From Bacillota bacterium (GTDB taxonomy: Bacteria > Bacillota > Clostridia > Acetivibrionales > DTU013): a stretch of DNA of 64,000 nt. The notes under the pieces were generated by a model, which did no database searches, was not told the DNA's origin, and was given only the letters and a program-made list of their open reading frames with translations. Positions 24,236 through 47,382 of the stretch are shown here, piece after piece; the stretch's first letter is position 1; every line of letters starts with the position of its first letter. A program made the translations under genes and the position numbers. Where the stretch lies: assembly GCA_023399355.1 (NCBI GenBank), contig JAEWQC010000006.1, positions 8,422 through 72,421 of the forward strand. The letters run 5' to 3'.

Positions 24236-24258
24236 AGCTGTTACACCACGGCTTTTTT
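24236..24258 (+). terminator. short intrinsic terminator (riboswitch expression platform candidate)
   Basis: AGCTGT (24236-41) pairs with ACGGCT (24248-53), including one G-U pair, and runs into a T6 tract (24253-58) about 30 nt before the kinase GTG start. Confidence 0.4.
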
Positions 24259-24291
24259 CATTTGCATGGACAATCAGGAAAGGTTGATTCT

Positions 24292-27372: not shown

Positions 27373-27373
27373 A

Positions 27374-28904: not shown

Positions 28905-28939
28905 CGGTTAAGTCCCGGTTCAGTGGGATTTTATATAAT
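28905..28939 (+). promoter_or_regulatory. 11-bp-phased direct repeat (CGGTTAAGT / CGGTTCAGT) abutting a TATAAT -10 box; candidate activator-dependent promoter of the giant ORF
   Basis: CGGTTAAGT lies at 28905-13 and CGGTTCAGT at 28916-24, a period of 11 nt. TATAAT lies at 28934-39, 9 nt after the second repeat. There is no recognisable -35 hexamer. The site is 100 nt upstream of ATG 29039. Confidence 0.4.
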
Positions 28940-29038: not shown

Positions 29039-32000
29039 ATGAAAAAGAGAATCAACCGATTTATTGCCGTCCTGTTATCATTTTTAGTACTTTTCGCATA
29101 TTTCCCCGCTTTCATTGTCGTCCATGCCGCCGAGCCTCTATTGACGGTTTCGGAGTGCAACGAATACAAGAAACTGATCAGCAGCAGCCTTGATTATACA
29201 ATAGCGATCTCGTCCGACAAGAGAGTAGTTTACTGGGGGTCTCCAACCAGCCCTGCAAGGAATGTGCCGACTGATCTTGAAAATGTCAGGATGGTGGCTG
29301 CCGGATACAGATTTGCTTTGGCTTTGAAGGATGACGGCAAGGTTGTGGCCTGGGGCGACAACGAATTCAATCAGTGTCAGGGAAACGGTCTCACTGATGT
29401 GAAATACATCACAGCCGGTAATTCCTTTGCTCTGGCGTTGAAAAATGACGGTACGGTTGTGGCCTGGGGCGCAAATGAAGGCGGTCAATGCGATGTGCCA
29501 GCCGGTCTCAGTGATGTTGTTGCCATCGAAGCGGGCAGTAACCATGCGCTTGCATTAAAAAGCGACGGCACCGTCATTGCCTGGGGAGCCAACTATACCG
29601 ATTGGAAACAGTGTGATATTCCCATCGACAAAATAGATCCGGCCAATACGGCACTGCCGAAGATTGTCGCACTTGATGCGCCATGGGGACACAATCTGGC
29701 GGTCCGGGAGGATGGATCGGTTGTTGCATGGGGAAATAATGAAAAATTACAGGCGACTGTTCCAGCCGGAATTACAAATGCCGTGGCTGCATCAGGTTCG
29801 CTTTGGTGCTCAATGGTACTCATGGCGGACGGTACGGTAAAGGAATGGGGCAAAACCTACAGCGCCATGGGCATATCGGAACCGTCGGGACTACCCTTTG
29901 TAAAAGCTGTTTCCTCCCAGCAGGATATGTCATTTGCATTGGTTGAAAATGACAGCGGTTATTATAAGGTCATCCCATGGGACGGTAGTGGGAAAAAAGA
30001 GGAGATAAACCTGTCCGTAGGACCTAAAATCGTTTCCTGCGCCTTGCCGGCAGGAGGGGATAAGGATGGGGACAATTCCTATATTGATGTGAGCTTCAAT
30101 CGTGGGATATACGGGGATGCGACCGGGACAAGCGCCGTTTCCGCCTCGGCATTTGTACTGGAGTATCGGAAAAACGAGGGGTCGGCAAATAGTGTCACCA
30201 TTACTTCCGCGACGCGAACGGATGGAACGGAACTTCAGGGCGGAGAAACAACTGTACGGTTCCATCTGGCTGTAAATGGAACACCGAGCGGACAGGAAAC
30301 GATCGAAATCAAGCCGGCATATGATTCAGGCAATGTACCGGTTTACGACGGTAACGGTACCATGATTGAGCCTTCGCAGACCACTGGTGCGACATTCCTG
30401 AATACAACAATGCTTCGTTTCGTATCATCAACGATTGATGATGCCAATACATATATAGATGTGGTTTTCAATAAGGGGATTTACGGGGATGTTCAGGGAA
30501 AAACCGGGGTTTCGGTCAGCGATTTCAAATTCTCCTTCTACCGGAACGACGGTTCCGCGACCGGAGCAACGCTGGTGTCCCTGACCGATAAGGATTTCGT
30601 ATCAACCACGCCCGGAGCGGAGACGGTAAGGTTCAATTTTTCAATCGACGGTACGGTAAACGGGAAAGAGACGATTGAAATCAAGCCGGCCGATGGAAAC
30701 TCCGTATTTACCTCCTCCGGTGAAGCGATGCAAGCCAGCCGCACCACCGGACGCATCCCATTGTCACCGCCGGCGCCGGAGATTGTCGGGATGGAGCTTG
30801 CAAATGACAACAGCCACCTTGATATCACCTTTAACACAGGAGTGTATGGAGACAGGGATAATATCACTAAAGCCGGCTTTAACCCCGTTACCTCCGGAGC
30901 AATCATTTGCCATCTCCAGTCTTTTGGAGGGGGAGCGACGAACGTCAGTATCAGCAGCTTTACCAGGCTTGACGGAATAACGCCGCTGATCGGAGGGGAG
31001 ACTGCTGTCCGGCTGAACCTGAGTTTCACCGGCAGCCCTACGGGAGTAGAATATTTCGGCATATGGGTGGAGCACCTGTATAATTCCAAAGGTGTGTTTT
31101 TGGGATCGGAGAATTCGACGATGATCAAGTTGAAGGCGTTATCGCCAGCGATCGGACTTTGTTCCGCCGCGCCGGATAACGAATATATTGACGTAAACTT
31201 CAACATGGGAGTATACGGCGGGGTGCAAGGATTCGACGAAAAAGGCAGGCCGACGGGTGTAGATAAGGATGATTTCAAGCTCGAATATGTAAAAGGCAGC
31301 GGAACCACTGAGAATGTGACTATTCGGGCCATCGGCGCAAATACGGGTTCAGACCCTGCAAATCCCGCTGTATTGAAAGGAGGAGAGAAAACGGTCCGGG
31401 TCTTTCTTTCTCTTACAAATCCGGCAACCGGCGGGGCGGGGGCGGAGACTGTCAAAATCTCTCCGAAGAATGATGAATCCATTTACAGTGAGGATAAACA
31501 ACCTGTACCTTCCAGCAGTTCGACCGGAAATGTCAATCTCCATGCTTCGTTCCCCGTGATTGAATCCTATAAGCTAGCAGCGGACAACAGCCATATTGAT
31601 GTCGACTTCAATCTGGGCGTTTATGGGGACAGTGCGCATACTCTCCCTGTTTCCGCACCCAACTTCAGCGTGAATTTCTATACCTATTCCTATAACGGCG
31701 GACGTGCAACTGTCGCAACCATCGGAGCAATAACAAGACAGGACGGATCGCCGCTTGAAGCCGGTGACAAAAATCTGAGGCTGCGGCTCAATATCACGGG
31801 AAAACCCAGCGGCGCTGAAACGATTGCGATCTACCCTTCCTCAGCCAACCAGATCTATAATTCCATGGGCAAGTCCATTCTTTCCGGTTCCAGCCAAAGG
31901 GTGCCGGACACCTTCCTGAATCCTGTTCCGGAAATTCTTACAGGGACTCTGGCTGCGAATCTGAGTTATATGGACGTTACGTTCAGCTGCGGTGTTTATG

Positions 32001-35000: not shown

Positions 35001-38000
35001 CAAAAGCAACAGATGCGCTGAAGCTTGCGAATATGTTTCCAAGGGTCGTTTCGGCAAGAGTGGGACCCGGGAACGGTTATGTCGACGTTACCTTCAGCAC
35101 CGGTATTTACGGTAATTCCGGGAGTACCGGCAAGGCGGCTTATTATTCCAATTTCCAGGCCGTGTTCACCAGAAACGGAGGTGCGGCGACAAACGCAAAC
35201 ATCAACTGGGCTGCGAAACCCGACAACTCCGACAGGCTGCTGGCAACGACGCTGGTCGGGGGCGAGGAGACGATCCGGTTCTTCCTTACGGTAACCAATG
35301 TGCCAAGCGGAGTCGAGATGGTAGAGATCGTACCTGCCAGTCCCCAATTGAGGGACGCAGACGGGCTGACGCTGAAAGCAGCGCAGTCAACCGGCAGGCT
35401 CAGGCTTGTCACCCCGTACCCTCCCCAGTGGTCATTGTCCGGTTCAAGCGAAGAAGCCCCGGGATGGATGTCGGACTATAGAATCAGTACGGGAAATGCG
35501 CATACGCTTGTCGTAAAAAACGACGGTACCGTCGCGGCATTCGGGGAGAACTCCCAGGGACAGGCAAATGTGCCGGGAACTTTGTCCGGCGTGGACTCTG
35601 TGGCTGCCGGGGATACATTTTCGGCAGCTCTGAAAAAGAATGGAACACTTGTCGGGTGGGGTGCGCTCAAGATACCGGCTGGAATGACAAACGTAAAAAT
35701 GATTGCAGCCGGCGGCAGCACGTTGTTCGCACTCAGGGCCGATAGCAGCGGGGAGTACATATCATTGGTCGGGGACGATTACTATAAGTATGACGATGAC
35801 AACGACAGGAATTATTATGTTGAGAAACTGAAGCTAATGGACAAGGATGTGCCGGTCAAGGCAATATCAGCAGGCAGCGACGAGCATCTGCTAGTGCTCA
35901 GGAACGACGGCACGGTTGAAGCCTACGATTATAATGACCGGTTGACTTCCGACTATTATGGGCAGTGCAGCATACCTGAAGGCCTGAAGGAGGTCAGAGC
36001 CGTTTCCGCCGGATTCGGCTTCTCCCTGGCGCTGAAGAAGGACGGCACCGTCGCGGGATGGGGAAATGTCAGGCTGCCGACGGGTGGACTCGTCAATGTT
36101 TCCGCGATATCCTCCTCTCTGAGGGGGTACTGCGTGCTCAAGACGGACGGTACCGCAGAGGTTTATGATATCAACGGCGTCAAGCTTATAAATAGCGGTA
36201 CGGCTGTCCTTAGCGGCATAATCGGGGTCAGCGCGGGAGCGGATACCTATCTTTTTGTCAGCAGGGACGGCACTGTGGATGGCCTGCGGGATACGGGAGT
36301 ATTCGGGTATATGGAGGATATCGATACTCCGGCGGACTTAAACATTTATAAGCATGTGCTGAATGGGACGATCTCCGGTAACGCATTCGTAACTCTCGAA
36401 CTAAGGGATTCAACCGCGGTAAATGCCGCAAAACTTGGCATGTATGGCGGCAACGGCTTGAGAGGCATCACCGCGGCGGATCTGAAGGTGGAAATTGTAA
36501 AGGGCAGTCAAAGCCTGCTGGGGATAACGATCACGGATGTGAAAAAAGGATCGAGCATATATGAGGATGCCGCCGCCGGCGATACGGCTGTCAGAGTTAT
36601 GCTCAGGGTAGCGGGAGTGCCCGACGGTACCGAGAGATTCGTCATCAAGCCCACTACGAGCTTCTCTGTGGCGGATGCTTCCGGCAATTCCATTTTCGCC
36701 TCACAGCCGTCAAATGTGATCGCGCTGGACAGGGGCTCCGAATACGAGCTGTATTCCAGGAGGATAGACGCAGGCTGGAGCCATACCGTTGCGATGAAGG
36801 ATACGGGATACGTCTTCAACTGGGGGGACAACACCTATGGACAGGCTCCCGCAATGCTGAACCGGGACAATGCGGTGCAGGTTTCCGCCGGATATCATCA
36901 CACGGTGGTTCTGCTCCATGACGGAACAGTGAAGGAATGGGGCGAGAATTATTACGGTCAGCTGGATATGCCCGGTAACGTTAAAAATATCATGCAAATA
37001 TCGGCCGGCGGATACCATACGCTGGCGTTGAAGTCGGACGGCACCGTTCTTGCATGGGGGGATGATTTCTATAAACAATGCACGGTACCTCTGGGTCTGT
37101 TCAATGTGATTGCCGTTTCCGCGGGCGGGCATCATTCCCTCGCCCTGAAGTCCGACGGCACGGTGGCCGCCTGGGGGGACGACAGCTTCAGGCAGTGCAG
37201 CGGCATGCCTTCCGGACTGAAGGAGGTGGTCGCGGTTTCGGCGGGCGACAACTTCTCCCTTGCATTGAAGCGGGACGGGACAGTCGTCGCCTGGGGGAAT
37301 AACGATAAAGGCCAATGTACGGTACCTTCTGGTCTGGCAAACATAAAAGCGGTCTCTGCCGGCTACAGGCATGCGCTCGCTCTGAAGTCGGACGGTACGG
37401 TGGTCGCCTGGGGGGACAACAGCAAAGGTCAATGCACGGTACCTTCAGACCTGACAGGTGTATTTGCTGTTTCTGCAGGGGCATATCACAATGCCGCCAT
37501 TAAAAGCGACGGCAAAATTATAGCCTGGGGCGACAACAGCGCCGGACAGGCCGCTGTTCCCGAAAGCGGACTGCCGCCGAAGGTCGTGTCGGCTGTAATG
37601 GCTGAGGACAACAGTTATATAGATCTGCAGTTCAATGCAGGCGTATACGGATCTCCTGATGGAACGGGCCCGCTGAAGACCGGTAATTTCAAAGTGGTAT
37701 TTGACGGAAAATCCGCTGGCGGCGCTACGGGAGTTTCCATCTCATCCGTCAGAAAAAACGACAATCCGCTGGAGAGCAAAGCTTCCGCTCTTACCGGAGG
37801 TGAAAATACCGTCCGTGTATTCCTCACATTCTCCGGCGTGATAAAAGGCGTCGAAACGGTCCAGCTGACGCAGGATAGTGCAAAACCGATCTATGACATG
37901 TACAAGGTGCCAATACAGAATGCAAACCTGACACCGGTATTTACGCTCAAGTTACAGAAAACCGGAAATGACATTATGGTCGACAATATCAGTTCCGGCG

Positions 38001-41000
38001 TGGGGACAAAATATGAAGTCGTGGCTATTGACAGCACAGACGGCAAATCGGCGCCCGTCTACGATTATGTTCCGTCAAACAATTGTTACAGCATATCCTG
38101 GGAGCATGAACTTAAAACGGCGGGTGCTACAAAAAATGCGGACGGGTTTTATGAAAGCAATAATACAATGCTCATTGCCGGTTTCTACAGTAAAGAGAAA
38201 AACCATGCCAACCAGGATATAACACAGGTGACATTCAACAGCAAGCCTATGAAATTCCTGAAGACAGCAGCCATCGGCGACATGAAGCTTGATCTGTACT
38301 ACATGCTCGGCAAGGATTTTCCGACTAATCCCGGCAAGTATAAGGTTACTGCGTATTACAGGGGTTCAAACAATTTACTTTACGGGAAAGCGGTATCCCT
38401 GACAAATGTTGCCCAGATGGCGCCTGAGAATGCCGCGTCCACTCTGGATGACGGAACGTACTGGAATATGAGTACGGCCCTGGAAACCAAAACAGATCAT
38501 GCAATGCAGGTCGATTTTACCGCAACGCCAAACAACAATGAAGTGGCAATGAAGACAACGAACCGGGACAAGGCCGGCGCCTATGTGACAAATTGCAACG
38601 ATTCCGTCTATTATAAAGACTGGGCGACAATATCCGCATCCGTACGGAGCGCCGAATATCCCAAAGAAGACATATCCTATGAATTAACTCCGACATATGA
38701 CACTCTGCCCGAGCTGCCTGCCGGAAACAAAATCGCTTTTGTCCAGGACGCCGGCAGTTCAGGGAATGCGGCAGCAGGACGCCAATTTACCTTCACGTCC
38801 GGTGACGATGGCGCAACTGTCACAATACTCAGCTCGCCGGATGGAAATAGCTGGACCACCTCGACATGCTCGCTGCCCGCTATTACCTATCAAGGTTTTA
38901 CCTATACCTATTTTGGCAAAACGGAGATTACGGACTGGGCTGCATATCAGGATACCGCATCCGGCACGACCAGGTATGTAGCTATTGGAAATGCAAATGT
39001 CGGCCGATACAAACAGGACGGCTCAGCCGAATATGAAACGGAAGAGTATACGGATGAAGGCGGGCACCCGCAAACACACAGATGGACCTATGAGACAAGT
39101 ATCAAGGTCTACCTTATGTCTTCGGACGGCGAGCATTGGACATCGGGTTATTACCCGGACTTTGTATTCGGGAATTATGAGAATGTAAAAAACGGATCTT
39201 TGTATACAAAATTCAAAGAGATCGTGTGCAACAACAATGGATTGTTTGTTGCATACGACAATGCAAATGTCTATTATATGATCTACTCCGATACGGAATG
39301 GACATTGGGGAAATCCTTTGAGAAGGACAGCCAGGGGAAGGTTGTAAACACGCAGTACAATTACCTGACGGGGCTGTTTACCAGGAATAATATCCTTGTG
39401 CTGACCGGCAGGGGACTGGATGATGAAAACCTGAATATTTACTGGTCAACGGGGGGCAGGGATTGGAAGCAGGCTGCCGTCACGTACAGGGATCCAAAGT
39501 TCTACGAGTACGACAAAACAGCCAGGAAGACGATCTGGACATACAGCAGGTCATTTACCGGAATGACTTATGCGCATGATACGTTCGCCGCCTCCAATGA
39601 ATATACCATCGCGGCGTCGCAGGACGGGAAAAACTGGAGCGTGTACAAATCGGACAAACAGGGTTCCGATCTTGTGGCGTTCCATGACACCTTCTTCCGG
39701 ACGGTATATTACCATACGGCTTCGGGAAATGCATGCTGGCTGCTGAGCTCCGACGACCTTCTGGACTGGCAGGTGGAAGACAAGGACTTCCTGCTGAGCG
39801 AGTTCACTCCGGAGGGAGCCAAGAAAACACTTACCGCAAATACCGTTCGCAATGGGTTCGAAGCCATGACGCTGGAGTTGGCGGCACCGGAAGACGGGGA
39901 TGTCAAAGTGCCTGTGAACAGTGTCCTGACCATAAGCTATACTGATGAATTGAAGCAGGGCGCAGATTTTAAAAGAATCTCACTGACAACCGCGGCCGGG
40001 ATCAATGTACCTGCCGGTCTCCTGCTTGACGGCGAAAACGGGACCATGAGCATTCTGCCCAAAGATGATCTTTCGCCAATCACGAAGTATATATTGACTA
40101 TACCTGAAGGTGCTTTGATAAACACGACCAGTATGAAGGCAAACAAACTGCTGAGGATTGCATTCACAACGGGCACCTCCACACTCCCGGAGATAACCGG
40201 TGATAATCTCGGATCGGCTGAGAATCCCTTCGATGTCGATTCGCCGCTGAACCTTTGTTATTCGCGGGATATTGCCGTAAATTTACAGACATTGTTCGAT
40301 AAGATAACGGTTGCTCCAAAAAACAATCTGTCAAATAAAGTTCAACTGGACAGGAGGATTGAGGGAACAAAGCTGATTCTGACACCGGCTGTGCCTCTGC
40401 AATATACTACTGCATATATGATCACAATACCGGACGGGGCCGTTAAAGATTTGTTCGGCATTGAGGCGGGTGGGAAAAGCATAGAGTTTATGACCGGAGC
40501 GGACAGCAAATTACCTGTGGTTGAAAGAACCGATCCGGTTGACTTGGGCGAACGGATTGCGACTGCTAATCCGATCTGTGCATATTTCAGCGAAGCGGTT
40601 ACGAAGGGAGCCGGTTTCGGCGGGATTACACTCCGGGATATCCGGTCCGATACTGCAACTGAAGCAGAGGTTACTCTTAAGGATGAAATTGTAAATGGGA
40701 CCACAAGAACCGCACTGATCATCCAGCCTGCAGCCGAACTGGCCCTCCACCACACCTACCGCGTAACGATTCCGTCCGATGCGGTCAGGGATGCGTCAAA
40801 CAATACGTTGGCTTCCGAATACTCCTTTGAGTTTACGGAGGAGATCAGAAAATCTTATCCTGTGCTTGTCGGATCGTCTCCCTCGAACAATGCCACCGAG
40901 GTGGACTTCATGGGCGATATCGTACTCACCTATGATCGCCCGATTAAAATGACGGATTCCTTCAGCCTGCCGGGATTTGTCTCCATCAAAAGCCAGGATG

Positions 41001-44000
41001 CAAACCATAGCGGAGTGGTCCTGTTCACCGCCAGGGTCGAAGGTAGTAAACTGATCATCACACCCAACCGGACGCCGAAGGATACACCCTATGATGCGTT
41101 GCTCTACGGCTGGCCTTATGAATTGCGCTATACCGGAGAATGTATCAGCGATTTATATGGGAATAAAGATATCACTGACATCCATTCGATTCTGTTTACC
41201 ATTGAAAGCCAGAAAATTGAATCAAGGTATCCGGCTGCGGACGGTTCGGACATTCCGCTCAATGCGGGCATCAGGGTGATGTTTGGCTCCAGGTTCGACA
41301 ATGCTGTCAAGGGAGCAAATTTTGCGGATATCAGGGTGAGCAGGATGGATGTGAGCGGAGGAAAGACAACCTATACGGACATCGCCTCCCATGCGGTTCT
41401 AAGCGGAAACAGCCTTTACATCTCCCCGGAAGAAGATATGAGCCCCCTGAAGACATATGCCGTCGAGATTCCAAGAGGCGCAGTCAAAGGTTCCGGAACA
41501 GGTGTGAACAATTATGATGCGTTCAGCTTCACCACAGGCACCGATTCCTCCAATACCGGCAGCATCGAGGGACCTGATGCGCTCAGAACCGGAAACGGAC
41601 TTTTGGAGGGGGCAGCGGCAAATTTCAAATCCGTGGGCTATCCTGAGGGCACCGGCTTCGTCTGGGATTTCGGAGACGATGCAACCGCATCGGGCGCAGC
41701 TGTATCTCATATGTTCACAACACGCGGCGAATATAACGTGATGCTGGTTTATACAAATTCAGCAGGCGAGCCGCGTACTATACGCAAAGCTGTCAGCGTA
41801 CTCAAACGACCTGATCTCTCATCTGTACAGCTTGATGCCACACCTTCGGCTCCTGTTGCGGTTCCGGCCGGGAGCAGCGCCGAATGGGTGGTTTCGCTCA
41901 GGAGCGGAGGACAGCCCCTCGGAAAGGCGCCGATCCTTGTCAGCAGGGTCTATCCGGTTACGGAAAACAGGCCGCCGGAGGTCCTGACGACGATCGAAAC
42001 CGACTCCAATGGGTATGCGAGCTACACCGGCACGCTTCCTGAAGGAGTATCGGAGTACTATGTGAAATTTACGTATGAAAACAGTTACAATGGCGTGACA
42101 GTGAAAAAAGAAATCAGAAGGATCATGAAGAGTGCGGTAGGAAAGGTTGAGGTATCCGGATACGTCATCAACGACAGGAATGTTGTCCAGTCAGGTGCTG
42201 CCGTGAAGATTGGAACCACCTCTGTCAGGACGGACAACACCGGATATTACAAGATAACCGGACTGGACGTCGGTACATATACCATGCTCGTCAGTGCGAA
42301 CATGCATTATGACAGTGTAACGGAAATATCGCTTGCTCAAAAGAGCCTGGTCAAAAACATTACGCTCACAAAACGGTCGCCCACCGGCAATCCGTCAGTC
42401 AGTACCATATACATAAACAATGCCGCTCCGGCATACGGACAGAATTTTTACTTCCTGCAGGGGATTGACGCGCCGATAGCGGTACACGCACTCATCGACT
42501 GGAATGGTCATGATCCGGGGTACGTTGAATTCAACCTGAACGGCACGGTCACCAGGAGTACAAACTTTGAGTTTTCGTTGAATGCAAAGAATCTCAAACA
42601 GGGCGATCAGCTCCTGATTGCCTGTGTGACTGCCGATGGCGTCCGGTCGGCTGCTTCCAACGCCCGCATCAATATCATCGAATCGCTTCCGAGAGAGTTT
42701 CCCGTCGATTTGAAACCGACATTTGTCGGGAATAAATATGTCATCGACCAGTATATTCCCCTGACAGGCATCAGTACTCCCTATATCGACAATATCCCGC
42801 TGCTCTCGGGAGGACCGATTTCCTTCCTGTCGCAGCCGGCCCGCGTAACCGGGTTTATGGGCCTGGACGGCACATTCACCGCTGTCGTCGGGAAAGGGGT
42901 CGATGCCAAAGCCATCAGTTATGCGGCGCAGAACAATATGCTGCAGAAATATCTGGCGAGGCAAAACGCATCGACCCAGGCGGAAATAGATGAGATCAAC
43001 GGCAGAAGGTCAAGCTCCCAGTTTGGCAGCTTCGAGTTCAGCGCGAACCTGGACGCCAACTTTAACTGGAACTATATCCCGGATTTAGGCAGGTGGCAAT
43101 ATCTCACGGGAGATATTGCCCTGAATGTGGATACCGAACTGTACGGCAAGAGATCATGGGGCATCAAGGGGATCCCGGTGAGCGCTTTCCTTGCCGGACA
43201 ATTCACACTTGAGATGGATGCGTCCCTGAAGTCGACGGGATCGATAGGAAACTACACCAGCGGATACCTTGACTTCTCCAAAATCGAGATCGAGATTTCC
43301 GGCGGATTGGATGCGTTTATTGCAAGCGCGGGCATCTACTTCGCAGGAGGCGGAAAGGTCAGGATCGATTTCCCGTCGGCGGATGTCAAACATTACATCT
43401 ACGTCAAGGGCTACGCGAAGCTGAAAGCGCTGCTCTGGAGCGTAAATTACCCATTCCTGGAGTACGGCTGGGGCGATGACTATGCCACCGGCAGCAAGGT
43501 TTCCTCCTTGATGTACGATAAAGCCGCCGGTCTTTATGATGTGAAGGAAAATGAGCTTCAGGAAATGAGCAGGGATTACATCAATGGCCAATCGGGATGG
43601 GAGCCATACGGGACGGAGATTACAGGGTCGGTGCCGGTGTCAGACGACTCAGCTTCAATGCCGGGCAGCAGAGCTTCGGCATCAGCAAATGCAGCTTCAG
43701 ATTCATACAGCACAGCTTCGGTACCGGACAATGCTGTTTCAATGCGAAGCAGCGCAGTTACGGCATTAAGCGGAACAGCCACAGCGACAAGCAATACTGC
43801 CCAAATGCAAAGCAGTCCAGCTTCGGCATCAAACAGCACGACAAAGACGACGCTGCGAAGCAATACCTACCCGTATACCGATCAGAAGCTTGTACCGTAT
43901 GACGGCGGTGCGCTGATGGTGCTACTTGAAGATGATCCGGGCAGAACCTCCCTCAACAGGACAAGAGCGTCTTATTCCATCTACAACGGCAGCACATGGA

Positions 44001-47000
44001 CAGCTCCGCTGCCGATAGAACCGGATGATGAGACGGCGGACTTCAAACCTGTGGCGGCTGCCACAACCAACTGTGTCCTGGCGGCATGGGAAAACCTGAA
44101 GGATGTTATGCCAGGGGACGCCAAGCTTGGAGATGCGCTTAAAAGTGAAGAGATCCGCGCCGGCTTTTATGATTCGGCGACGGGAAAATGGAACAGCCCC
44201 TACGACCTGACATCGGACAGCTACCTTGACCATTCGCCCCAAATAGCTGCGGGCGGTGGCAGCGGCATTCTGACCTGGGTCAAGAGCAAATCGGACAATT
44301 ACGATTCCGCCCTGAGCAATGCCTATTCGGCTAAAGATGAGATCATGTTCTCGAAATGGGACGGGAGCAGCTTCAGCAAACCGGACGTCATTGCTTCGCC
44401 CGACGGGATCGTCATTGATTCCTCCATTGCATATGATGGGACTAACGGAGCGTTCGCATGTACGCTGGACGGAGATAACGACCTTAGTACCACCGATGAC
44501 CGCGAGATTTATATCATGACGTACGACGGAACAAAGTGGAGCCCGCTCAGCCGGATGACAGATAATACCGTCAGGGACTCTTCACCCCAGGTTTGCATCG
44601 ATAAAAACGGGAAAGCTTTCCTTGCCTGGAGCGAAGACAAAAAGCTCATGTACGCGGCGGATGCGGGTTCGGATCAGCCTCAGCTCAAAACGGCTCTTGA
44701 GGATACGATCGTCACCGAGCCTCTCACAATGACCCTGAAAAGTGACGGCAGTATTGCTCTGATCTGCCCCGGCAAGTCGTCTGAAGGCGGACAGGAACTG
44801 TATATGATGACATATGACTTTGAATATGATGCCTGGAGTAACGAAATAGAGCTTACGTCGGATCAGGCAAACAACTACTCGCCCAGTTCGGTATTTATCG
44901 GCAATCAGCTTGTGACCGTCTACAACAGGGCGCAGGTGGTTGAGGAAACCAATCCTGCGGATGGGCAAACCTACCCGGCAGCGAGCGACTGTGCCGATCT
45001 TGTGATGTCCTCCGTAACACTCAGTCACGATCTGTCAGTTACATCTGCTGCAATTACGATGTCGGATAATAATCCGTATCCCGGAAGTGTCATTACCATC
45101 GGTGCAACGATAGAGAACAAGGGAATGTTCGCCGAACCGGGAGTTGAGGTTTCATTCTACTACGGAGATCCCGGCAAGGGCGGAACACTGATAAAAACGG
45201 TGACCGTTCCCGGCCCCGTCGTTCCGGGTGACGCGGCATATGCCTCGACCGAATGGGAAGTGCCTTCCGGCGGGACGGAAACCGAACTGTATGTTGTGGC
45301 GAATTATAAGGATAAATCAACCACGGACGGGAACCCAACGGACAATACCGCGGTCAGAAAGATCGTGAGTCCCGATCTCGAGATATCGGCGCTGAAATGT
45401 ACACCGGCAGGAGAAGGAAAATACGCTATTTCGGCAACAGTAACCAATATCGGCCGTTCGGATGTCGCAAATGCAACCGTCTCATTCAACCGCGGCGACC
45501 AGGCAGGCAGCCTGCAGGCTGTCGGAACGGCAGACACCGGAGCGCTGGGCAAGGGCGAGGCAAAGGATGTATTATACCTGTGGCCGGCGGACCCAGGCGT
45601 GTGGATAACGGAAGAAAACAGCTCCAATCCCGGCAAAGTGGATATTTTTGCTTCGGTTGAGGCAACGGGCGGTACGGCTGAGACGGAGCTTTCGAATAAT
45701 CTGTCGACGACAACTCTTGTAAGGAAAAGCCTGAACATACTGGCAACCGATCCGTCCAACTACGGAAAAAACGTCGGTATTGACAAGACTGTCAATATGA
45801 CCTTTGACAGTACAATCAAGAAAGGCGGCGCTTTTGAGAACATTACGCTGGCAGGTCCGGATAATATACCGGCAGCTGTCACAAAAACCATAAGCGAGGA
45901 TACGTTAACCATCAAACCGAATTCACCGCTTAAGTACGGCAGTACCTATACGCTCAGAATTCCAGCTTCTGCGGTCATTATTGCGGAGAGCGGCATATCC
46001 GGCAGCGAGTGTACAATCACTTTCAGCACGGAAACGAACCCCCAAGGCCCGGGTAATCCTGACAACCCGGGCAATCCAGGCGGGAATCCGGGCAATCCGG
46101 CTTCCGGCAACCCAGGTACGAACTCGGATAAGGATAACGGAACCAACACCGCCATCGTATCCGGGGCTTATAAAGGAACGGTTGAAGTGAAGACGGATGC
46201 CGGAAAGGGACAGGCGACAGCCATCCTTGAGGAGGCATTCCTTCGGCAATCAAAGGATTCTCTCTCCATACGGCTGCCCAAAATTGAAAAAGCCGTATCC
46301 TATGGTTTGCAGCTGCCATCGTCCGCCTTATTTGCGAAACCGGGAGACCGTAAGATTAAAATGATATGTGAAAACGGCTCTATCACGCTTCCATCCAATA
46401 TGCTTACGAAGGATCAAGCCGGGAGTCATGAGACTGTGTCTGTCACTATGACAAAAGTTAATGCCGGGAATCTGCCGGGCGAAGTTCAAAAGCTGGTTGG
46501 AAATAAGCCTGTTATTGAGCTGAAGCTGAAGGCTGACGATAAAATGATGGAATGGAGCAATCCCGATGCGCCTGTTACGGTGTCCATTCCATACAAGCCG
46601 ACTGCGGCGGAGCTGTCGGATCCCGATAAGATCGTGATCTGGTACATTGACGGTTCAGGCAGCCTTACTCCGGTTTTTGCCAGCTTTTATGACCCGGAGA
46701 CGGGAATGGTGACATTCAGGACAACCCACTTCAGCTATTATGCAGTAGCGTATGTAAAAAAGAGCTTTACGGACCTGAAAGGTTATTCCTGGGCAAAAGC
46801 TCCCATAGAGGCGCTGGCTGCCAGAGGAATCCTGAACGGCATGCCTAAAACCATGTATTATCCGGGAAAGAATATCACAAGAGCGGATTTCCTGTATATG
46901 CTCGTAAGAACGTTGGGGCTGAGCACCGGGTTCAAATCCAATTTCTCCGATGTAGACAAAAATGCATACTACTGGAACGAACTTGGTACCGCAAGACAGC

Positions 47001-47305
47001 TCGGCATTTCTCTCGGAAGCGGGAACAATCAATTCCGTCCGAATGACAAAATATCAAGACAGGACATGATGGTGCTGACCGTCCGTGCAATTGAGAAGCT
47101 CGGAGAAATGAAAACGCAAGGCGCATCGGATAATCTGGCTCAGTTCAGCGATAAAAAACTCCTTTCGGCATATGCAATCGACAGTGCGGAGTATGCAGTA
47201 AATGCAGGAATGATCAAAGGAAACAAAGGCCTTTTGAATCCGTTGGGAGGCTCGACCAGGGCTGAAGCGGCCGTCATGCTTTATCGATTGTTCAAATCAA
47301 GGTAA
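29039..47305 (+). CDS. giant (6,088 aa) SLH-anchored multidomain cell-surface protein
   Basis: A single uninterrupted 18,267-nt ORF with a GGGAG RBS. The N-terminal signal peptide is MKKRINRFIAVLLSFLVLFAYFPAFIVVHA/AEP. The internal RCC1, Ig-like, Asp-box, PKD and CARDB regions are listed below as separate features. Three C-terminal SLH domains follow. Confidence 0.9.
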   Translation: MKKRINRFIAVLLSFLVLFAYFPAFIVVHAAEPLLTVSECNEYKKLISSSLDYTIAISSDKRVVYWGSPTSPARNVPTDLENVRMVAAGYRFALALKDDGKVVAWGDNEFNQCQGNGLTDVKYITAGNSFALALKNDGTVVAWGANEGGQCDVPAGLSDVVAIEAGSNHALALKSDGTVIAWGANYTDWKQCDIPIDKIDPANTALPKIVALDAPWGHNLAVREDGSVVAWGNNEKLQATVPAGITNAVAASGSLWCSMVLMADGTVKEWGKTYSAMGISEPSGLPFVKAVSSQQDMSFALVENDSGYYKVIPWDGSGKKEEINLSVGPKIVSCALPAGGDKDGDNSYIDVSFNRGIYGDATGTSAVSASAFVLEYRKNEGSANSVTITSATRTDGTELQGGETTVRFHLAVNGTPSGQETIEIKPAYDSGNVPVYDGNGTMIEPSQTTGATFLNTTMLRFVSSTIDDANTYIDVVFNKGIYGDVQGKTGVSVSDFKFSFYRNDGSATGATLVSLTDKDFVSTTPGAETVRFNFSIDGTVNGKETIEIKPADGNSVFTSSGEAMQASRTTGRIPLSPPAPEIVGMELANDNSHLDITFNTGVYGDRDNITKAGFNPVTSGAIICHLQSFGGGATNVSISSFTRLDGITPLIGGETAVRLNLSFTGSPTGVEYFGIWVEHLYNSKGVFLGSENSTMIKLKALSPAIGLCSAAPDNEYIDVNFNMGVYGGVQGFDEKGRPTGVDKDDFKLEYVKGSGTTENVTIRAIGANTGSDPANPAVLKGGEKTVRVFLSLTNPATGGAGAETVKISPKNDESIYSEDKQPVPSSSSTGNVNLHASFPVIESYKLAADNSHIDVDFNLGVYGDSAHTLPVSAPNFSVNFYTYSYNGGRATVATIGAITRQDGSPLEAGDKNLRLRLNITGKPSGAETIAIYPSSANQIYNSMGKSILSGSSQRVPDTFLNPVPEILTGTLAANLSYMDVTFSCGVYGDAAHTAAVDADDFKIVFNKNTGGSATGVTIDSVKKTDTEDKDDAASELTGGETAFRFFLSIDGSQNGQETIRIMPADGNSVYSGAGNPMAQEQSTPSRNLTVGPPEITSAKLARDNSYIDINFSSSVYGDSIHSTGLNEEDFSLSVESNNGDVNRAHISSVRQIDGTTPPSGGEKALRLYLVTQKVVTDEKTNETMLVATSASGTEKIEVKPAGGSSIYSFSGTAMDAAQTTGKISLAEIPRIVSGVMAADYSYVDVTFSKGVYGGSNGRTPLSAGSFLLYFERNGGIATNVSIKAVRKASGTSLSSAPALTGGETTVRVFLSVLGAADGKEWIKILPAGARAIYDSSGRAMSDDKSTGMLYLKGSTLQIVSSFIAEDNSYVDVNFNVGVYGAADGDSPVTLNCFGIAATDGRIASVTKTDGEALTGGETTLRFHLNFPYVQYPGAAFAIVPASSSGGPKVYNANGAEMPLNQQTGMIPLNNVALDSSELSQNNAYIDLKFDMGVYGNNAQNTPIGPEDLALEFRQNGGTATGAAISSIRPADNAVEADAGTLKGGEATVRVFLKVSGNPDGKETVSLSTVPGSVIGSHILAGVLTTGAISMYSGAFKAVSAAMGDDNAYVDMTFSQGIYGDAAGRTPVDANDFAASFSGGPGSLTGVSIAAVGKPDGEKPGTASMLTGGEKTVRIFLSVSGTLSGSESLKIEPKTTSSIYPLHGAALSGENSSATVQMISNKPEILSSVMAAGSKYVDVIFNIGVYGTASSGPVTRDSFDCAFNANAGNGGNGKITVSVNSVRKPDSGSEAFASALTGGEKTLRFFLKINKAPGSTATDSIIPTGLETIVITPAQTIYSSTGQQLSTSASTGPVGLLAPEPEFGDCSASQQSGTDKKLQYIDVKFTTDVFGAADGSTPVDPSDFELLFARNSGNAERAEILSVCRPDPAEPAKDSELTGGTSAIRFYLKTYFGNGANAVEASTSGVETVVIKPKDNSIFNRSGQAMAVTKATDALKLANMFPRVVSARVGPGNGYVDVTFSTGIYGNSGSTGKAAYYSNFQAVFTRNGGAATNANINWAAKPDNSDRLLATTLVGGEETIRFFLTVTNVPSGVEMVEIVPASPQLRDADGLTLKAAQSTGRLRLVTPYPPQWSLSGSSEEAPGWMSDYRISTGNAHTLVVKNDGTVAAFGENSQGQANVPGTLSGVDSVAAGDTFSAALKKNGTLVGWGALKIPAGMTNVKMIAAGGSTLFALRADSSGEYISLVGDDYYKYDDDNDRNYYVEKLKLMDKDVPVKAISAGSDEHLLVLRNDGTVEAYDYNDRLTSDYYGQCSIPEGLKEVRAVSAGFGFSLALKKDGTVAGWGNVRLPTGGLVNVSAISSSLRGYCVLKTDGTAEVYDINGVKLINSGTAVLSGIIGVSAGADTYLFVSRDGTVDGLRDTGVFGYMEDIDTPADLNIYKHVLNGTISGNAFVTLELRDSTAVNAAKLGMYGGNGLRGITAADLKVEIVKGSQSLLGITITDVKKGSSIYEDAAAGDTAVRVMLRVAGVPDGTERFVIKPTTSFSVADASGNSIFASQPSNVIALDRGSEYELYSRRIDAGWSHTVAMKDTGYVFNWGDNTYGQAPAMLNRDNAVQVSAGYHHTVVLLHDGTVKEWGENYYGQLDMPGNVKNIMQISAGGYHTLALKSDGTVLAWGDDFYKQCTVPLGLFNVIAVSAGGHHSLALKSDGTVAAWGDDSFRQCSGMPSGLKEVVAVSAGDNFSLALKRDGTVVAWGNNDKGQCTVPSGLANIKAVSAGYRHALALKSDGTVVAWGDNSKGQCTVPSDLTGVFAVSAGAYHNAAIKSDGKIIAWGDNSAGQAAVPESGLPPKVVSAVMAEDNSYIDLQFNAGVYGSPDGTGPLKTGNFKVVFDGKSAGGATGVSISSVRKNDNPLESKASALTGGENTVRVFLTFSGVIKGVETVQLTQDSAKPIYDMYKVPIQNANLTPVFTLKLQKTGNDIMVDNISSGVGTKYEVVAIDSTDGKSAPVYDYVPSNNCYSISWEHELKTAGATKNADGFYESNNTMLIAGFYSKEKNHANQDITQVTFNSKPMKFLKTAAIGDMKLDLYYMLGKDFPTNPGKYKVTAYYRGSNNLLYGKAVSLTNVAQMAPENAASTLDDGTYWNMSTALETKTDHAMQVDFTATPNNNEVAMKTTNRDKAGAYVTNCNDSVYYKDWATISASVRSAEYPKEDISYELTPTYDTLPELPAGNKIAFVQDAGSSGNAAAGRQFTFTSGDDGATVTILSSPDGNSWTTSTCSLPAITYQGFTYTYFGKTEITDWAAYQDTASGTTRYVAIGNANVGRYKQDGSAEYETEEYTDEGGHPQTHRWTYETSIKVYLMSSDGEHWTSGYYPDFVFGNYENVKNGSLYTKFKEIVCNNNGLFVAYDNANVYYMIYSDTEWTLGKSFEKDSQGKVVNTQYNYLTGLFTRNNILVLTGRGLDDENLNIYWSTGGRDWKQAAVTYRDPKFYEYDKTARKTIWTYSRSFTGMTYAHDTFAASNEYTIAASQDGKNWSVYKSDKQGSDLVAFHDTFFRTVYYHTASGNACWLLSSDDLLDWQVEDKDFLLSEFTPEGAKKTLTANTVRNGFEAMTLELAAPEDGDVKVPVNSVLTISYTDELKQGADFKRISLTTAAGINVPAGLLLDGENGTMSILPKDDLSPITKYILTIPEGALINTTSMKANKLLRIAFTTGTSTLPEITGDNLGSAENPFDVDSPLNLCYSRDIAVNLQTLFDKITVAPKNNLSNKVQLDRRIEGTKLILTPAVPLQYTTAYMITIPDGAVKDLFGIEAGGKSIEFMTGADSKLPVVERTDPVDLGERIATANPICAYFSEAVTKGAGFGGITLRDIRSDTATEAEVTLKDEIVNGTTRTALIIQPAAELALHHTYRVTIPSDAVRDASNNTLASEYSFEFTEEIRKSYPVLVGSSPSNNATEVDFMGDIVLTYDRPIKMTDSFSLPGFVSIKSQDANHSGVVLFTARVEGSKLIITPNRTPKDTPYDALLYGWPYELRYTGECISDLYGNKDITDIHSILFTIESQKIESRYPAADGSDIPLNAGIRVMFGSRFDNAVKGANFADIRVSRMDVSGGKTTYTDIASHAVLSGNSLYISPEEDMSPLKTYAVEIPRGAVKGSGTGVNNYDAFSFTTGTDSSNTGSIEGPDALRTGNGLLEGAAANFKSVGYPEGTGFVWDFGDDATASGAAVSHMFTTRGEYNVMLVYTNSAGEPRTIRKAVSVLKRPDLSSVQLDATPSAPVAVPAGSSAEWVVSLRSGGQPLGKAPILVSRVYPVTENRPPEVLTTIETDSNGYASYTGTLPEGVSEYYVKFTYENSYNGVTVKKEIRRIMKSAVGKVEVSGYVINDRNVVQSGAAVKIGTTSVRTDNTGYYKITGLDVGTYTMLVSANMHYDSVTEISLAQKSLVKNITLTKRSPTGNPSVSTIYINNAAPAYGQNFYFLQGIDAPIAVHALIDWNGHDPGYVEFNLNGTVTRSTNFEFSLNAKNLKQGDQLLIACVTADGVRSAASNARINIIESLPREFPVDLKPTFVGNKYVIDQYIPLTGISTPYIDNIPLLSGGPISFLSQPARVTGFMGLDGTFTAVVGKGVDAKAISYAAQNNMLQKYLARQNASTQAEIDEINGRRSSSQFGSFEFSANLDANFNWNYIPDLGRWQYLTGDIALNVDTELYGKRSWGIKGIPVSAFLAGQFTLEMDASLKSTGSIGNYTSGYLDFSKIEIEISGGLDAFIASAGIYFAGGGKVRIDFPSADVKHYIYVKGYAKLKALLWSVNYPFLEYGWGDDYATGSKVSSLMYDKAAGLYDVKENELQEMSRDYINGQSGWEPYGTEITGSVPVSDDSASMPGSRASASANAASDSYSTASVPDNAVSMRSSAVTALSGTATATSNTAQMQSSPASASNSTTKTTLRSNTYPYTDQKLVPYDGGALMVLLEDDPGRTSLNRTRASYSIYNGSTWTAPLPIEPDDETADFKPVAAATTNCVLAAWENLKDVMPGDAKLGDALKSEEIRAGFYDSATGKWNSPYDLTSDSYLDHSPQIAAGGGSGILTWVKSKSDNYDSALSNAYSAKDEIMFSKWDGSSFSKPDVIASPDGIVIDSSIAYDGTNGAFACTLDGDNDLSTTDDREIYIMTYDGTKWSPLSRMTDNTVRDSSPQVCIDKNGKAFLAWSEDKKLMYAADAGSDQPQLKTALEDTIVTEPLTMTLKSDGSIALICPGKSSEGGQELYMMTYDFEYDAWSNEIELTSDQANNYSPSSVFIGNQLVTVYNRAQVVEETNPADGQTYPAASDCADLVMSSVTLSHDLSVTSAAITMSDNNPYPGSVITIGATIENKGMFAEPGVEVSFYYGDPGKGGTLIKTVTVPGPVVPGDAAYASTEWEVPSGGTETELYVVANYKDKSTTDGNPTDNTAVRKIVSPDLEISALKCTPAGEGKYAISATVTNIGRSDVANATVSFNRGDQAGSLQAVGTADTGALGKGEAKDVLYLWPADPGVWITEENSSNPGKVDIFASVEATGGTAETELSNNLSTTTLVRKSLNILATDPSNYGKNVGIDKTVNMTFDSTIKKGGAFENITLAGPDNIPAAVTKTISEDTLTIKPNSPLKYGSTYTLRIPASAVIIAESGISGSECTITFSTETNPQGPGNPDNPGNPGGNPGNPASGNPGTNSDKDNGTNTAIVSGAYKGTVEVKTDAGKGQATAILEEAFLRQSKDSLSIRLPKIEKAVSYGLQLPSSALFAKPGDRKIKMICENGSITLPSNMLTKDQAGSHETVSVTMTKVNAGNLPGEVQKLVGNKPVIELKLKADDKMMEWSNPDAPVTVSIPYKPTAAELSDPDKIVIWYIDGSGSLTPVFASFYDPETGMVTFRTTHFSYYAVAYVKKSFTDLKGYSWAKAPIEALAARGILNGMPKTMYYPGKNITRADFLYMLVRTLGLSTGFKSNFSDVDKNAYYWNELGTARQLGISLGSGNNQFRPNDKISRQDMMVLTVRAIEKLGEMKTQGASDNLAQFSDKKLLSAYAIDSAEYAVNAGMIKGNKGLLNPLGGSTRAEAAVMLYRLFKSR
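29192..29993 (+). repeat. RCC1-repeat beta-propeller cluster 1 (inside the giant ORF)
   Basis: About seven blades of the form ..AAGxxFALALKxDGxVVAWGxNxxGQCxVPxGL.., for example VAAGYRFALALKDDGKVVAWGDNEFNQC and ITAGNSFALALKNDGTVVAWGANEGGQCDVPAGL. Confidence 0.75.
30020..35410 (+). repeat. 14 tandem copies of an unassigned ~115-135-aa repeat domain (inside the giant ORF)
   Basis: Each unit contains three conserved blocks: (D/N)NxY(I/V)D(V/I/L)xF(N/S)xG(V/I)YG; then L(T/K)GGExx(V/I/L)R(V/F)xL; then GxE(T/S)(I/V)x(I/V)xP; and ends ...TTGxxxL. The anchors read in order: DNSYIDVSF, ANTYIDVVF, DNSHLDITF, DNEYIDVNF, DNSHIDVDF, NLSYMDVTF, DNSYIDINF, DYSYVDVTF, DNSYVDVNF, NNAYIDLKF, DNAYVDMTF, GSKYVDVIF, KLQYIDVKF, GNGYVDVTF. 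Confidence 0.8.
35477..36287 (+). repeat. RCC1-like propeller cluster 2 (more degenerate)
   Basis: ISTGNAHTLVVKNDGTVAAFGENSQGQANVPG, VAAGDTFSAALKKNGTLVGWG, VSAGFGFSLALKKDGTVAGWG and similar blades. Confidence 0.6.
36752..37562 (+). repeat. RCC1-repeat propeller cluster 3 (best conserved; blades also similar at the DNA level)
   Basis: Seven blades, for example VSAGGHHSLALKSDGTVAAWGDDSFRQC, VSAGDNFSLALKRDGTVVAWGNNDKGQCTVPSGL and VSAGYRHALALKSDGTVVAWGDNSKGQCTVPSDL. The nucleotide strings around 37129-37200, 37250-37320 and 37369-37440 are visibly alike. Confidence 0.8.
38831..39778 (+). repeat. Asp-box (BNR, SxDxGxxW) repeat region, probable beta-propeller
   Basis: Five Asp-box-like motifs: SSPDGNSW (38831), SSDGEHW (39119), STGGRDW (39446), SQDGKNW (39617) and SSDDLLDW (39746). 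They are spaced about 40-110 codons apart. Confidence 0.6.
39871..41550 (+). repeat. five tandem SbsA/Big_5-like Ig domains
   Basis: Units of about 110 aa with the pattern P.dg..vpvns.l.i.f......g..f..i.l......v.....l.g..l.i.P...L...T.Y.v.IP.GAv.d..gn......f.F.T. Examples are ...YILTIPEGAL..., ...YMITIPDGAVKD..., ...YRVTIPSDAVRD... and ...YAVEIPRGAVKG.... Confidence 0.6.
41560..41805 (+). other. PKD domain
   Basis: FVWDFGDDATASGAAVSHMFTTRGEYNVMLVYTNSAGE (WDFGDG-type PKD signature). Confidence 0.7.
42139..42375 (+). other. carboxypeptidase-regulatory-like (CarboxypepD_reg) beta-sandwich domain
   Basis: VEVSGYVINDRNVVQSGAAVKIGTTSVRTDNTGYYKITGLDVGTYTMLVSANMHY. Confidence 0.6.
45028..45730 (+). 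repeat. two CARDB-like domains
   Basis: DLSVTSAAITMSDNNPYPGSVITIGATIENKGMFAEPGVEVSFYYGDP...AYASTEWEVP and DLEISALKCTPAGEGKYAISATVTNIGRSDVANATVSFNRGD.... Confidence 0.6.
46766..47302 (+). repeat. three S-layer homology (SLH) domains (cell-wall anchor)
   Basis: FTDLKGYSWAKAPIEALAARGILNGM...ITRADFLYMLVRTL; FSDVDKNAYYWNELGTARQLGISLGSGNNQFRPNDKISRQDMMVLTVRA; FSDKKLLSAYAIDSAEYAVNAGMIKGNKGLLNPLGGSTRAEAAVMLYRLF. Confidence 0.85.
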
Positions 47306-47344: not shown

Positions 47345-47382
47345 TGAGGCCGCTGAAACATAGCGGCTTCAGGGCTTTGTTG
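47345..47382 (+). terminator. probable intrinsic terminator of the giant ORF
   Basis: TGAGGCCGCT (47345-54) pairs with AGCGGCTTCA (47362-71): 10 bp with one G-U pair and a 7-nt loop. The tail is GGGCTTTGTTG. It starts 40 nt after the stop codon. Confidence 0.45.

Follow-up and report, generated by a model that had tools for sequence, protein, structure and literature searches.

A 6,088-residue SLH-anchored surface protein of an uncultured Bacillota bacterium and its apparent control by a c-di-GMP riboswitch-linked sensor system

The window analyzed here is a 64,000-nucleotide stretch of a Bacillota assembly (GCA_023399355.1, contig JAEWQC010000006.1) whose host is an uncultured Gram-positive anaerobe. 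It carries a giant open reading frame (ORF) at positions 29039..47305 that, like every feature given below, lies on the + strand, and that stands behind a kinase/regulator operon led by a cyclic di-GMP (c-di-GMP) riboswitch. The ORF runs from its ATG to its stop through 6,088 codons with zero internal stops; an open frame of this length excludes chance, and the ORF is therefore genuine. Forty nt past the stop codon lies a terminator-like hairpin (47345..47371), with an 11-bp stem that includes 6 G-C pairs. The mature product has 6,058 amino acids (aa), a mass of 643.5 kDa and an isoelectric point of 4.86.

Both ends of the protein carry the signals of a secreted, wall-held polypeptide. At the N-terminus, a Sec signal peptide (29039..29128, aa 1-30; MKKRINRFIAVLLSFLVLFAYFPAFIVVHA) was read from the translation; by eye it has a basic n-region (KKR), a hydrophobic core and a VHA/A cleavage site, with the cut after VHA and before AEP, and it is kept in the orthologues L085, P0151, P0006 and L084. 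At the C-terminus, a triad of SLH domains (46763..47302, aa 5909-6088) matched Pfam PF00395 in 3 stretches with 96.5 bits. Trimers of this domain bind wall polymers (PMC6081394). The last 100 residues have no LPXTG motif, and the terminal ...MLYRLFKSR falls inside an SLH domain. Pfam gave no HemolysinCabind or related RTX match across the whole giant protein, nor any match to an outer-membrane retention module or a type I secretion system (T1SS) signal, and csaB, for a pyruvylated secondary cell-wall polymer, was not found in the annotated part of the window. Because the C-terminal SLH domains hold the protein non-covalently on the wall, its N-terminus faces outward. As predicted from its sequence, then, the giant ORF is an intact gene for an acidic, secreted, SLH-anchored multidomain surface fibre of ~644 kDa. 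An earlier reading of the window from its letters (the sequence-only reading) had described one uninterrupted ORF from a signal peptide to three SLH domains, and the translation and Pfam matches agree with it.

Followed outward from the wall, the predicted module order would begin with the three SLH domains, an unassigned ~200-aa pre-SLH module J and a Pro/Gly/Asn-rich linker (together 46034..46753, read from the translation), and then a Big_5 Ig-like domain (aa 5562-5665) and two CARDB domains (45029..46033; CARDB 48.4 bits in 2 stretches). Next would come the propeller-like, tryptophan-repeat module I (43856..45028) and a low-complexity Ser/Ala/Thr-rich linker (43625..43855, read from the translation), which is poorly conserved (33-38%), followed by the 417-aa module H (42374..43624) and a composite segment (41576..42367) holding a CarboxypepD_reg-like domain, a ~110-aa unassigned Ig-like segment and a PKD domain (PKD_4, 40.3 bits). 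Five Big_5 domains (39881..41542, aa 3615-4168; 164 bits in 5 stretches), module F (38789..39853) and module E (37964..38788) would lead on to the outermost part: copy 16 of an unnamed repeat (37565..37963), RCC1-like propeller c (36761..37573), repeat copy 15 (36344..36748), RCC1-like propeller b (35456..36343), a stalk of 14 tandem repeats (30011..35428) and, at the distal tip, RCC1-like propeller a (29171..29998). In such a layout the beta-sandwich domains would act as spacers, holding the binding faces of as many as five propellers well away from the wall.

Most of the named domains had been recognized in the sequence-only reading, and profile searches bore these out with some adjustment. 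Its three RCC1 clusters, at aa ~45-320 (a), ~2140-2435 (b) and ~2575-2845 (c), scored 139, 97 and 250 bits against RCC1_2; against WD40_RLD, for which the Pfam cut-off is 150 bits, clusters a and c passed (198 and 208 bits) and the irregular cluster b fell below (80 bits). Cluster c is the best conserved module of the protein, with 63% identity to the distant orthologue P0006. The PKD and two CARDB domains also held, as did the five Big_5 domains, to which the copy at aa 5562-5665 must be added for a total of six. The proposed CarboxypepD_reg-like domain has a match with E = 2e-7 that, at 31.6 bits, stays 0.7 bits under the Pfam cut-off of 32.3. Module J occurs together with SLH domains in P0002, P0012 and P0085, and PDB sequence and profile searches with it returned only chance-level matches. 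More than half of the 6,088 residues have no match to any curated domain family.

This unassigned sequence includes a repeat of ~125 aa. Self-BLAST and alignment recovered 16 copies, exactly the number counted previously from the sequence: 14 in tandem (aa 325-2130) and two single copies, one behind RCC1 cluster b (aa 2436-2570) and one behind cluster c (aa 2843-2975). Pairwise identity among the 16 copies is 24-46%, with the consensus P.IVS...A.DNSYIDV.FN.GVYG...G..PV...DF...F..N.G.AT.V.I.SV.K.DG........LTGGE.TVR.FL.V.G...G.ET..I.PA....IY. AlphaFold, given an alignment of only these 16 paralogous copies, returned an Ig-like beta-sandwich of 6-7 strands with a mean predicted local distance difference test score (pLDDT) of 94.4. 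Pfam, NCBIfam, PHROGs and PDB sequence searches with the repeat found no match, and in Foldseek no PDB entry came below E = 0.3, the closest superpositions being generic Ig-like domains with a template-modelling (TM) score of at most 0.54. The repeat was also considered as a diverged Big_5 domain, an identity that was rejected (profile-profile probability against the six Big_5 copies, 0.2%). When 1.84 billion representative proteins were searched exhaustively with its profile, 1,084 carried it at E <= 0.001, 713 of them at E <= 1e-10. The best 150 of the 1,084 carriers had a median length of 1,346 aa and included SLH domains in 14 and RCC1 in 5; named carriers come from Paenibacillus, Desulfotomaculum and a Solirubrobacterales metagenome-assembled genome, and other proteins of the family pair the repeat with Big_12, Big_5, LamG or DUF1554. 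We read the repeat, on this sequence evidence, as a widespread and still unnamed extracellular spacer domain. Since it folds confidently and is present in over 1,000 clusters of proteins, the locus could serve to define at least one new extracellular domain family.

Modules E (aa 2976-3250), F (aa 3251-3605), H (aa 4446-4862) and I (aa 4940-5330) together make up ~1,450 residues with no family assignment. E and H gave no match in Pfam, NCBIfam or PHROGs, and searches of PDB sequences and profiles with E, F, H and I brought up only chance-level matches. E is predicted to be all-beta, and H is strongly conserved among the orthologues. AlphaFold was run on an E-H-I chimera with a three-sequence alignment that included two full-length orthologues, and reached a mean pLDDT of 37; the model of E was unreliable (block-mean pLDDT 19-61) and that of H stayed below 40. 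The two stretches that the sequence-only reading could not assign (37964-38788 and 42374-43624) thus remain without assignment after library, PDB and AlphaFold searches.

Module F had been taken for an Asp-box propeller. Its six SxDGxxW motifs, each one residue shorter than the canonical Asp-box, are kept in four orthologues, and the distant orthologues carry seven such motifs, including a canonical SQDGGVTW in P0006; the Pfam support expected of such a fold was not found, there being no BNR, BNR_2 or Sortilin match at E <= 1 over aa 3250-3610 and no PDB profile match. An Asp-box-like propeller is a plausible candidate assignment for F, judged from these motifs. Between the lineages, F differs by one blade: the window protein, L085 and the P0001 lineage have lost a ~40-residue segment with SFSDDGETW that is present in P0006 and L084 (comparison region aa 3225-3290).

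Module I is built of blades that recur every ~60 aa and follow the pattern '..W(S/T)xP..LT.D...D.SP', in line with the second tryptophan-repeat region proposed before. Only aa ~5107-5267 reached block-mean pLDDT values that were mostly 58-85, and here the AlphaFold model formed four-stranded blades. All top Foldseek matches were beta-propellers (GH130, GH43, GH33 sialidases and PLL lectins; TM 0.25-0.44), and the model suggests that I is likely of the beta-propeller fold class. Identity to P0006 is 43% in H and 50% in I, compared with 34-39% in E, F and the Big_5 run. RCC1 cluster c, H and I are therefore the likeliest functional modules, being the best conserved toward this orthologue. A scan of JGI metagenomes found the H-I pair in only two contigs, both of them orthologues, and the E-F and H-I modules were found only in the four orthologues of the giant protein.

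These orthologues vary in length and divergence. The closest, L085, has 6,030 aa and 86% identity over the 3,240 N-terminal residues available; P0001/P0151 (6,013 and 6,029 aa) share 69% identity, and P0006 (locus L082; 4,798 aa) and the L084 ORF (4,904 aa) each share 39%. The four are collinear, with all modules present in unchanged order. The number of stalk repeats varies, with 16 in the window gene and ~6 in P0006. Within the window gene, internal repeats share 60-79% identity at the DNA level, over stretches of no more than 124 nt, and are so too diverged for collapse in assembly to be expected. An independent short-read contig (Logan SRR13358366) is 100% identical over window positions 26861-34793 and covers the first 5.7 kb of the gene.

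Upstream of the giant gene, a c-di-GMP-I riboswitch aptamer (24129..24211) matched Rfam RF01051 with 69.3 bits (cut-off 35) over model positions 1-87. A terminator hairpin with a U-run (24227..24262; free energy, dG, -7.8, z -2.5), the expected expression platform, starts 15 nt past the aptamer; its L085 counterpart has other stem bases (dG -13.7, z -5.7). The riboswitch would act on the kinase/regulator operon that follows, not on the giant gene itself. The first gene encodes a hybrid sensor kinase of 1,036 aa (24262..27372), for which Pfam gave the order 7TMR-DISM 7TM, HisKA-HATPase, receiver and a second, LytS-type His_kinase-HATPase; the first 233 residues have no Pfam domain. Two kinase modules in one chain are an unusual internal-relay architecture. 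The kinase is 87% identical to that of L085, and the same architecture adjoins the regulator in L085, L086, L088, L089 and L091.

The second gene (27347..28462, 371 aa) encodes a response regulator with a receiver (Response_reg, 84.7 bits), a weakly scoring OmpR-type winged helix and a BTAD domain (PF03704, 44.7 bits; cut-off 22.1). JGI names its relatives 'SARP family response regulator' (SARP, Streptomyces antibiotic regulatory protein), several carry PF00486, and they lie in Peptococcaceae, Desulfotomaculaceae and Desulfosporosinus. Between regulator and giant gene, the spacer holds the C-terminal remnant of an SLH domain (28553..28660, translation ending in ...LSPAGTATRAEMVQILYNLLVKRG before a stop). 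This tail is a leftover of another SLH gene, sits in ~300 nt of spacer missing from L085, and is outside the mechanism proposed below.

The giant gene starts 577 nt past the regulator, and ~100 nt before its ATG a pattern search located a predicted regulator-dependent promoter (28907..28939), GTTAAGT-CCCG-GTTCAGT followed after 9 nt by TATAAT. The two heptamers are direct repeats with an 11-bp period and stand in place of a -35 region. Published SARP sites are likewise heptameric direct repeats with 4-nt spacers and an 11-bp period that overlap the -35 region (PMC10972967), and from this fit we infer that the adjacent regulator is a direct activator of the giant gene. The motif matched once in the 64-kb window, with 0.00 matches expected in shuffles.

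The same motif lies downstream of related receiver-SARP regulators in seven other loci with differing cargo, four of which have large secreted or SLH proteins. In L085 (regulator 87% identical), GTTAAGT-CATG-GTTCAGT-N9-TATAAT precedes the giant orthologue. GTTAAGT-GGCG-GTTAAGT-N9-TAGAAT precedes a 2,524-aa Glug/YDG/MBG_2/SLH protein in L086/L087 (regulator 70%), GTTAAGC-CGTG-GTTAAGC-N9-TATAAT a 472-aa protein in L088 (74%), GTTAAGT-GGTG-GTTAAGT-N9-TAGAAT a 2,148-aa NHL/fn3 protein in L091 (Peptococcaceae BICA1-7; 65%), and GTTCAGT-TGTG-GTTCAGA-N9-TATAAT another secreted protein in L002 (59%). L089 (69%) has a degenerate motif followed by a receiver-GGDEF gene, and in L004 (33%) TGTCAGA-N4-TGTCAGA-N9-TATTAT leads to a receiver-only ORF and a 1,630-aa secreted protein. 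Another giant orthologue, in L084, follows GTTAAGT-CGTG-GTTAAGT-N9-TATAAT, with no kinase/regulator gene within the 682 nt of upstream sequence available. The distance from motif to -10 box is constant in at least eight independent loci; when a relaxed pattern was run over 1.47 Mb of locus sequence, just two further matches turned up, each at an unrelated locus. L085, the closest relative, keeps every link of the chain, from riboswitch through kinase, regulator and motif to giant gene. No riboswitch was found in the kinase operons of L002, L003, L086, L088, L089 and L091, and the kinase, regulator and promoter module is, judging by these sequences, more widespread than its c-di-GMP input.

The spacer itself is conserved: its last ~270 nt, including a ~95-nt 5' untranslated region (UTR), are ~85% identical between window and L085. 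Within this stretch the UTR (window 28940-29038; L085 11301-11396) is 85-90% identical and includes a long A/T-rich stretch and a ribosome-binding site. No Rfam family matched in the UTR; it is possibly a further post-transcriptional element.

Links to c-di-GMP appear again and again at loci with related regulators. In L089 the regulator gene is followed by one for a receiver-GGDEF diguanylate cyclase (8927-9898), L090 (11428-11517) has a c-di-GMP-I-GGC riboswitch before a BNR/Sortilin propeller protein, and L091 (2016-2106) has a c-di-GMP-I riboswitch before a receiver-only gene, away from the kinase operon.

Taken together, the features of the locus suggest that the giant gene is switched on by the neighboring sensor system, whose own operon has a c-di-GMP riboswitch in its leader. 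In the mechanism that we propose, the giant gene would use its own promoter, with the heptamer pair replacing the -35 region 9 nt before TATAAT. This pair would be the site of the adjacent SARP-type regulator (receiver, winged helix-turn-helix and BTAD), which the adjacent 7TMR-DISM hybrid kinase would phosphorylate. Ahead of both genes, the c-di-GMP-I aptamer and terminator would act by transcription attenuation. With aptamer and terminator placed on the operon, c-di-GMP would govern how much sensor and regulator is made, and how active they are would depend on the signal that the kinase itself perceives; the outcome would be a two-input gate in which fibre production needs both inputs. The sequence-only reading had placed the gene behind a c-di-GMP-riboswitch-linked two-component system, and this position stands: L085 repeats the arrangement, and the SARP-type promoter tracks the regulator family.

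The architecture and regulation of the giant protein suggest that it is probably an adhesin. The whole reading, an intact SLH-anchored adhesin or aggregation fibre switched on through a riboswitch-kinase-SARP chain, is the one we favor, with reasonable though far from full confidence. It retains part of the earlier interpretation, namely a secreted SLH surface protein with no catalytic family and a riboswitch link, and drops its concern over mis-assembly or split annotation, against which the diverged repeats, the independent Logan assembly and the four collinear orthologues speak.

Several observations weigh against this adhesin-fibre reading. On the regulatory side, six of the eight other loci with motif and regulator have no riboswitch on the kinase operon (L002, L004, L086/L087, L088, L089 and L091), and the 10 kb upstream of P0006 (L082) contain neither kinase/regulator nor motif nor riboswitch. 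The lack of the cassette at P0006 implies that the wiring is not a fixed property of the protein family, and its lack together with the missing riboswitches of the related operons that the c-di-GMP input is a lineage-specific addition. The L085 aptamer (6779-6861), nearly identical in sequence to that of the window, is best fitted by the same-clan c-di-GMP-I-GGC variant model (61.9 bits, cut-off 59) and not by c-di-GMP-I. The fold of the whole leader has a z of -0.28 and gives no ON/OFF direction for c-di-GMP, and the Trans_reg_C match in the middle segment of the regulator (19.6 bits, E 9.5e-4) is under the 26.2 cut-off. As for the protein, E and H (~690 aa) have no reliable structure model, F and I are propeller-like, a fold common to many glycosidases, and the case for an adhesin is built from sequence and models.

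The propeller-like character of F and I makes a catalytic role possible, and E and H might likewise conceal an enzyme. The protein would then be a surface-displayed enzyme: a glycoside hydrolase, lyase or peptidase activity for polymer degradation or wall remodelling would reside in F, I or H, and the rest of the protein would tether and extend it. The Foldseek matches of module I to GH130, GH43, GH33 sialidases and polysaccharide lyases point this way, as does the standing of H and I as the best conserved of the unassigned modules, which an active site would also produce; in addition, 7TMR-DISM sensors, to which the kinase belongs, are often tied to carbohydrate sensing. Those matches, however, reach TM values of only 0.25-0.44 on a model with a mean pLDDT of 37 and include non-enzymatic lectin propellers, the sequence shows no RIP motif of the sialidase type, and, as the sequence-only reading had noted a lack of catalytic motifs, so Pfam, NCBIfam, PHROGs and PDB sequence searches gave no catalytic family, nor did PDB profiles give a match. 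We regard an enzymatic role as unlikely.

We give about the same low weight to a structural role, in which the protein would be a long S-layer-associated (surface-layer-associated) protective or spacing fibre or sheath with no specific ligand and with propellers that self-associate. An SLH anchor is a usual feature of S-layer proteins and of proteins associated with the layer (PMC6081394), spacer-type beta-sandwich domains make up most of the mass, and the variation in stalk repeats between the window gene and P0006 looks as if length were selected. A signal-dependent activator promoter, however, is not expected for a constitutive coat, the regulatory cassette carries quite different cargo in other genomes, and conservation is higher in RCC1 cluster c, H and I than in the spacer domains.

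Less probable still is that the giant gene lies next to the riboswitch-controlled two-component system by coincidence, being served by an ordinary promoter, with the heptamers having another role or none. P0006 does without the kinase/regulator and motif, L003 has a kinase/regulator pair (55-64% identity) with no giant gene or motif downstream, and binding of the regulator to its site is a prediction from sequence; yet a motif found once in 64 kb, fixed in its spacing to the -10 box in at least eight loci, always after a relative of the regulator or before a giant orthologue, and rare in the 1.47-Mb scan would be hard to explain by chance. Finally, we discount almost entirely an assembly artefact or decaying pseudogene with collapsed, expanded or chimeric repeats, for although short-read assembly is prone to errors in giant genes rich in repeats, the Logan contig ends inside the repeat region (window 34793) and the P0006 contig has its SLH end called as a separate 137-aa gene, the frame is intact through 6,088 codons, the DNA repeats are short and diverged, and collinear proteins of 4,798-6,030 aa with the same module order are encoded in four other assemblies.

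The adhesin-fibre reading can be extended to a broader and more tentative proposal, which we consider possible but would not yet bet on. The riboswitch, dual-kinase sensor, receiver-SARP regulator and heptamer promoter may form, in Peptococcaceae- and Desulfotomaculum-like Bacillota, a portable cassette for the expression of surface proteins that are mostly very large and can replace one another, such as the RCC1 giant of the window and L085, the Glug/YDG/SLH protein of L086 and the NHL/fn3 protein of L091. Under this proposal c-di-GMP would enter here through a two-input gate, H-I would be a new binding or catalytic head, and the family of the 125-aa repeat would be extracellular, widespread and new.

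Directly after the giant gene (window 47400-64000), GC content falls abruptly from ~0.50 to 0.33. An IS200/IS605-type transposase fragment (~47440-47750) is followed by 1.7 kb with no long ORF, a perfect TTGACA-17-TATAAT promoter (49068-49096) and a NusG paralogue (49543-50148). A biosynthetic cluster encodes an AMP-binding enzyme, an acyltransferase, electron-transfer flavoprotein (ETF) beta and alpha, a hydrolase, an acyl-CoA dehydrogenase and a nonribosomal peptide synthetase (NRPS) condensation-adenylation-thiolation (C-A-T) module (59661-62783). The region looks like a horizontally acquired NRPS/polyketide synthase (PKS) island, possibly with a LoaP-like antiterminator. P0006 is also directly followed by a PKS megasynthase (L082 25562-34397; acyltransferase, AMP-binding, PP-binding and ketosynthase domains). 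Upstream of the riboswitch (window 15364-23677) lie genes for a short-chain dehydrogenase/reductase, an acetyl-CoA-synthetase-like enzyme, a 3-hydroxyacyl-CoA dehydrogenase, a cyclase, a beta-keto-acid cleavage enzyme, a thiolase and a major facilitator superfamily transporter. This set resembles a lysine or beta-keto-acid fermentation module, which fits an anaerobic Bacillota host.

None of these results overturns expectation; their value lies in a well-defined, testable regulatory chain and in several uncharted protein modules, of which H and I are two conserved ones worth solving structurally. The locus offers a compact model of how uncultured Gram-positive anaerobes decide on deploying a very costly surface fibre: the riboswitch would set the level of sensor and regulator, and the predicted site of the regulator can be read in the sequence and is conserved across genomes. 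SARP activators are known from actinomycete antibiotic clusters, and if the proposed chain is true, their role would widen to two-component control of surface architecture in Bacillota.

Among known surface proteins, the nearest in design are RCC1/SLH proteins of Paenibacillus (e.g., WP_135552795.1), which like the giant protein combine a Sec signal, a terminal SLH triad, runs of Ig-like domains and RCC1. A Paenibacillus cymbidii protein shares with it the unnamed repeat, RCC1, module J and SLH. Compared by architecture alone, the giant protein is 2-3 times larger than these Bacillota SLH relatives and adds the E-F and H-I modules. Among Gram-negative bacteria, giant repeat adhesins of the RTX class (MpIBP, LapA, SiiE) present ligand-binding modules far from the cell on a long extender of tandem Ig-like domains, and LapA is under c-di-GMP control. 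The giant protein follows the same design logic but has no RTX, T1SS signal or outer-membrane retention module; with its anchor in C-terminal SLH domains, its polarity is reversed. Here the effect of c-di-GMP would come by way of a riboswitch that controls a two-component operon, and not by proteolytic release. The design logic is also that of the LPXTG giant adhesins, although the LPXTG motif is missing.

For the regulatory chain, the closest precedent comes from Clostridioides difficile, in which a c-di-GMP riboswitch in the 5' leader controls the type IV pilus locus and Cdi-2-2 controls a regulator/kinase operon (PMC6837544, PMC6200980), the signal-transduction operon cmrRST (PMC6837544). 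The aptamer in the window differs from that of cmrRST in being class I and not class II, the regulator is of the SARP type, and the target, an SLH giant instead of a pilus locus, can be traced by a conserved promoter motif. Like the SARPs ActII-ORF4, DnrI, AfsR and PimR, the regulator of the window has a BTAD, preceded by a putative OmpR-type DNA-binding domain, and the motif before the giant gene, with GTTAAGT as its heptamer, has exactly the SARP target geometry (PMC10972967). Unlike the Streptomyces SARPs, this regulator adds an N-terminal receiver that makes it a two-component response regulator, its host is a Bacillota anaerobe, and the cargo of its relatives is mostly large surface proteins and not antibiotic clusters. 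The giant protein thus belongs with the known SLH-anchored, S-layer-associated giants, and it is the regulatory cassette, the unnamed domain family and the H-I pair that are newer.

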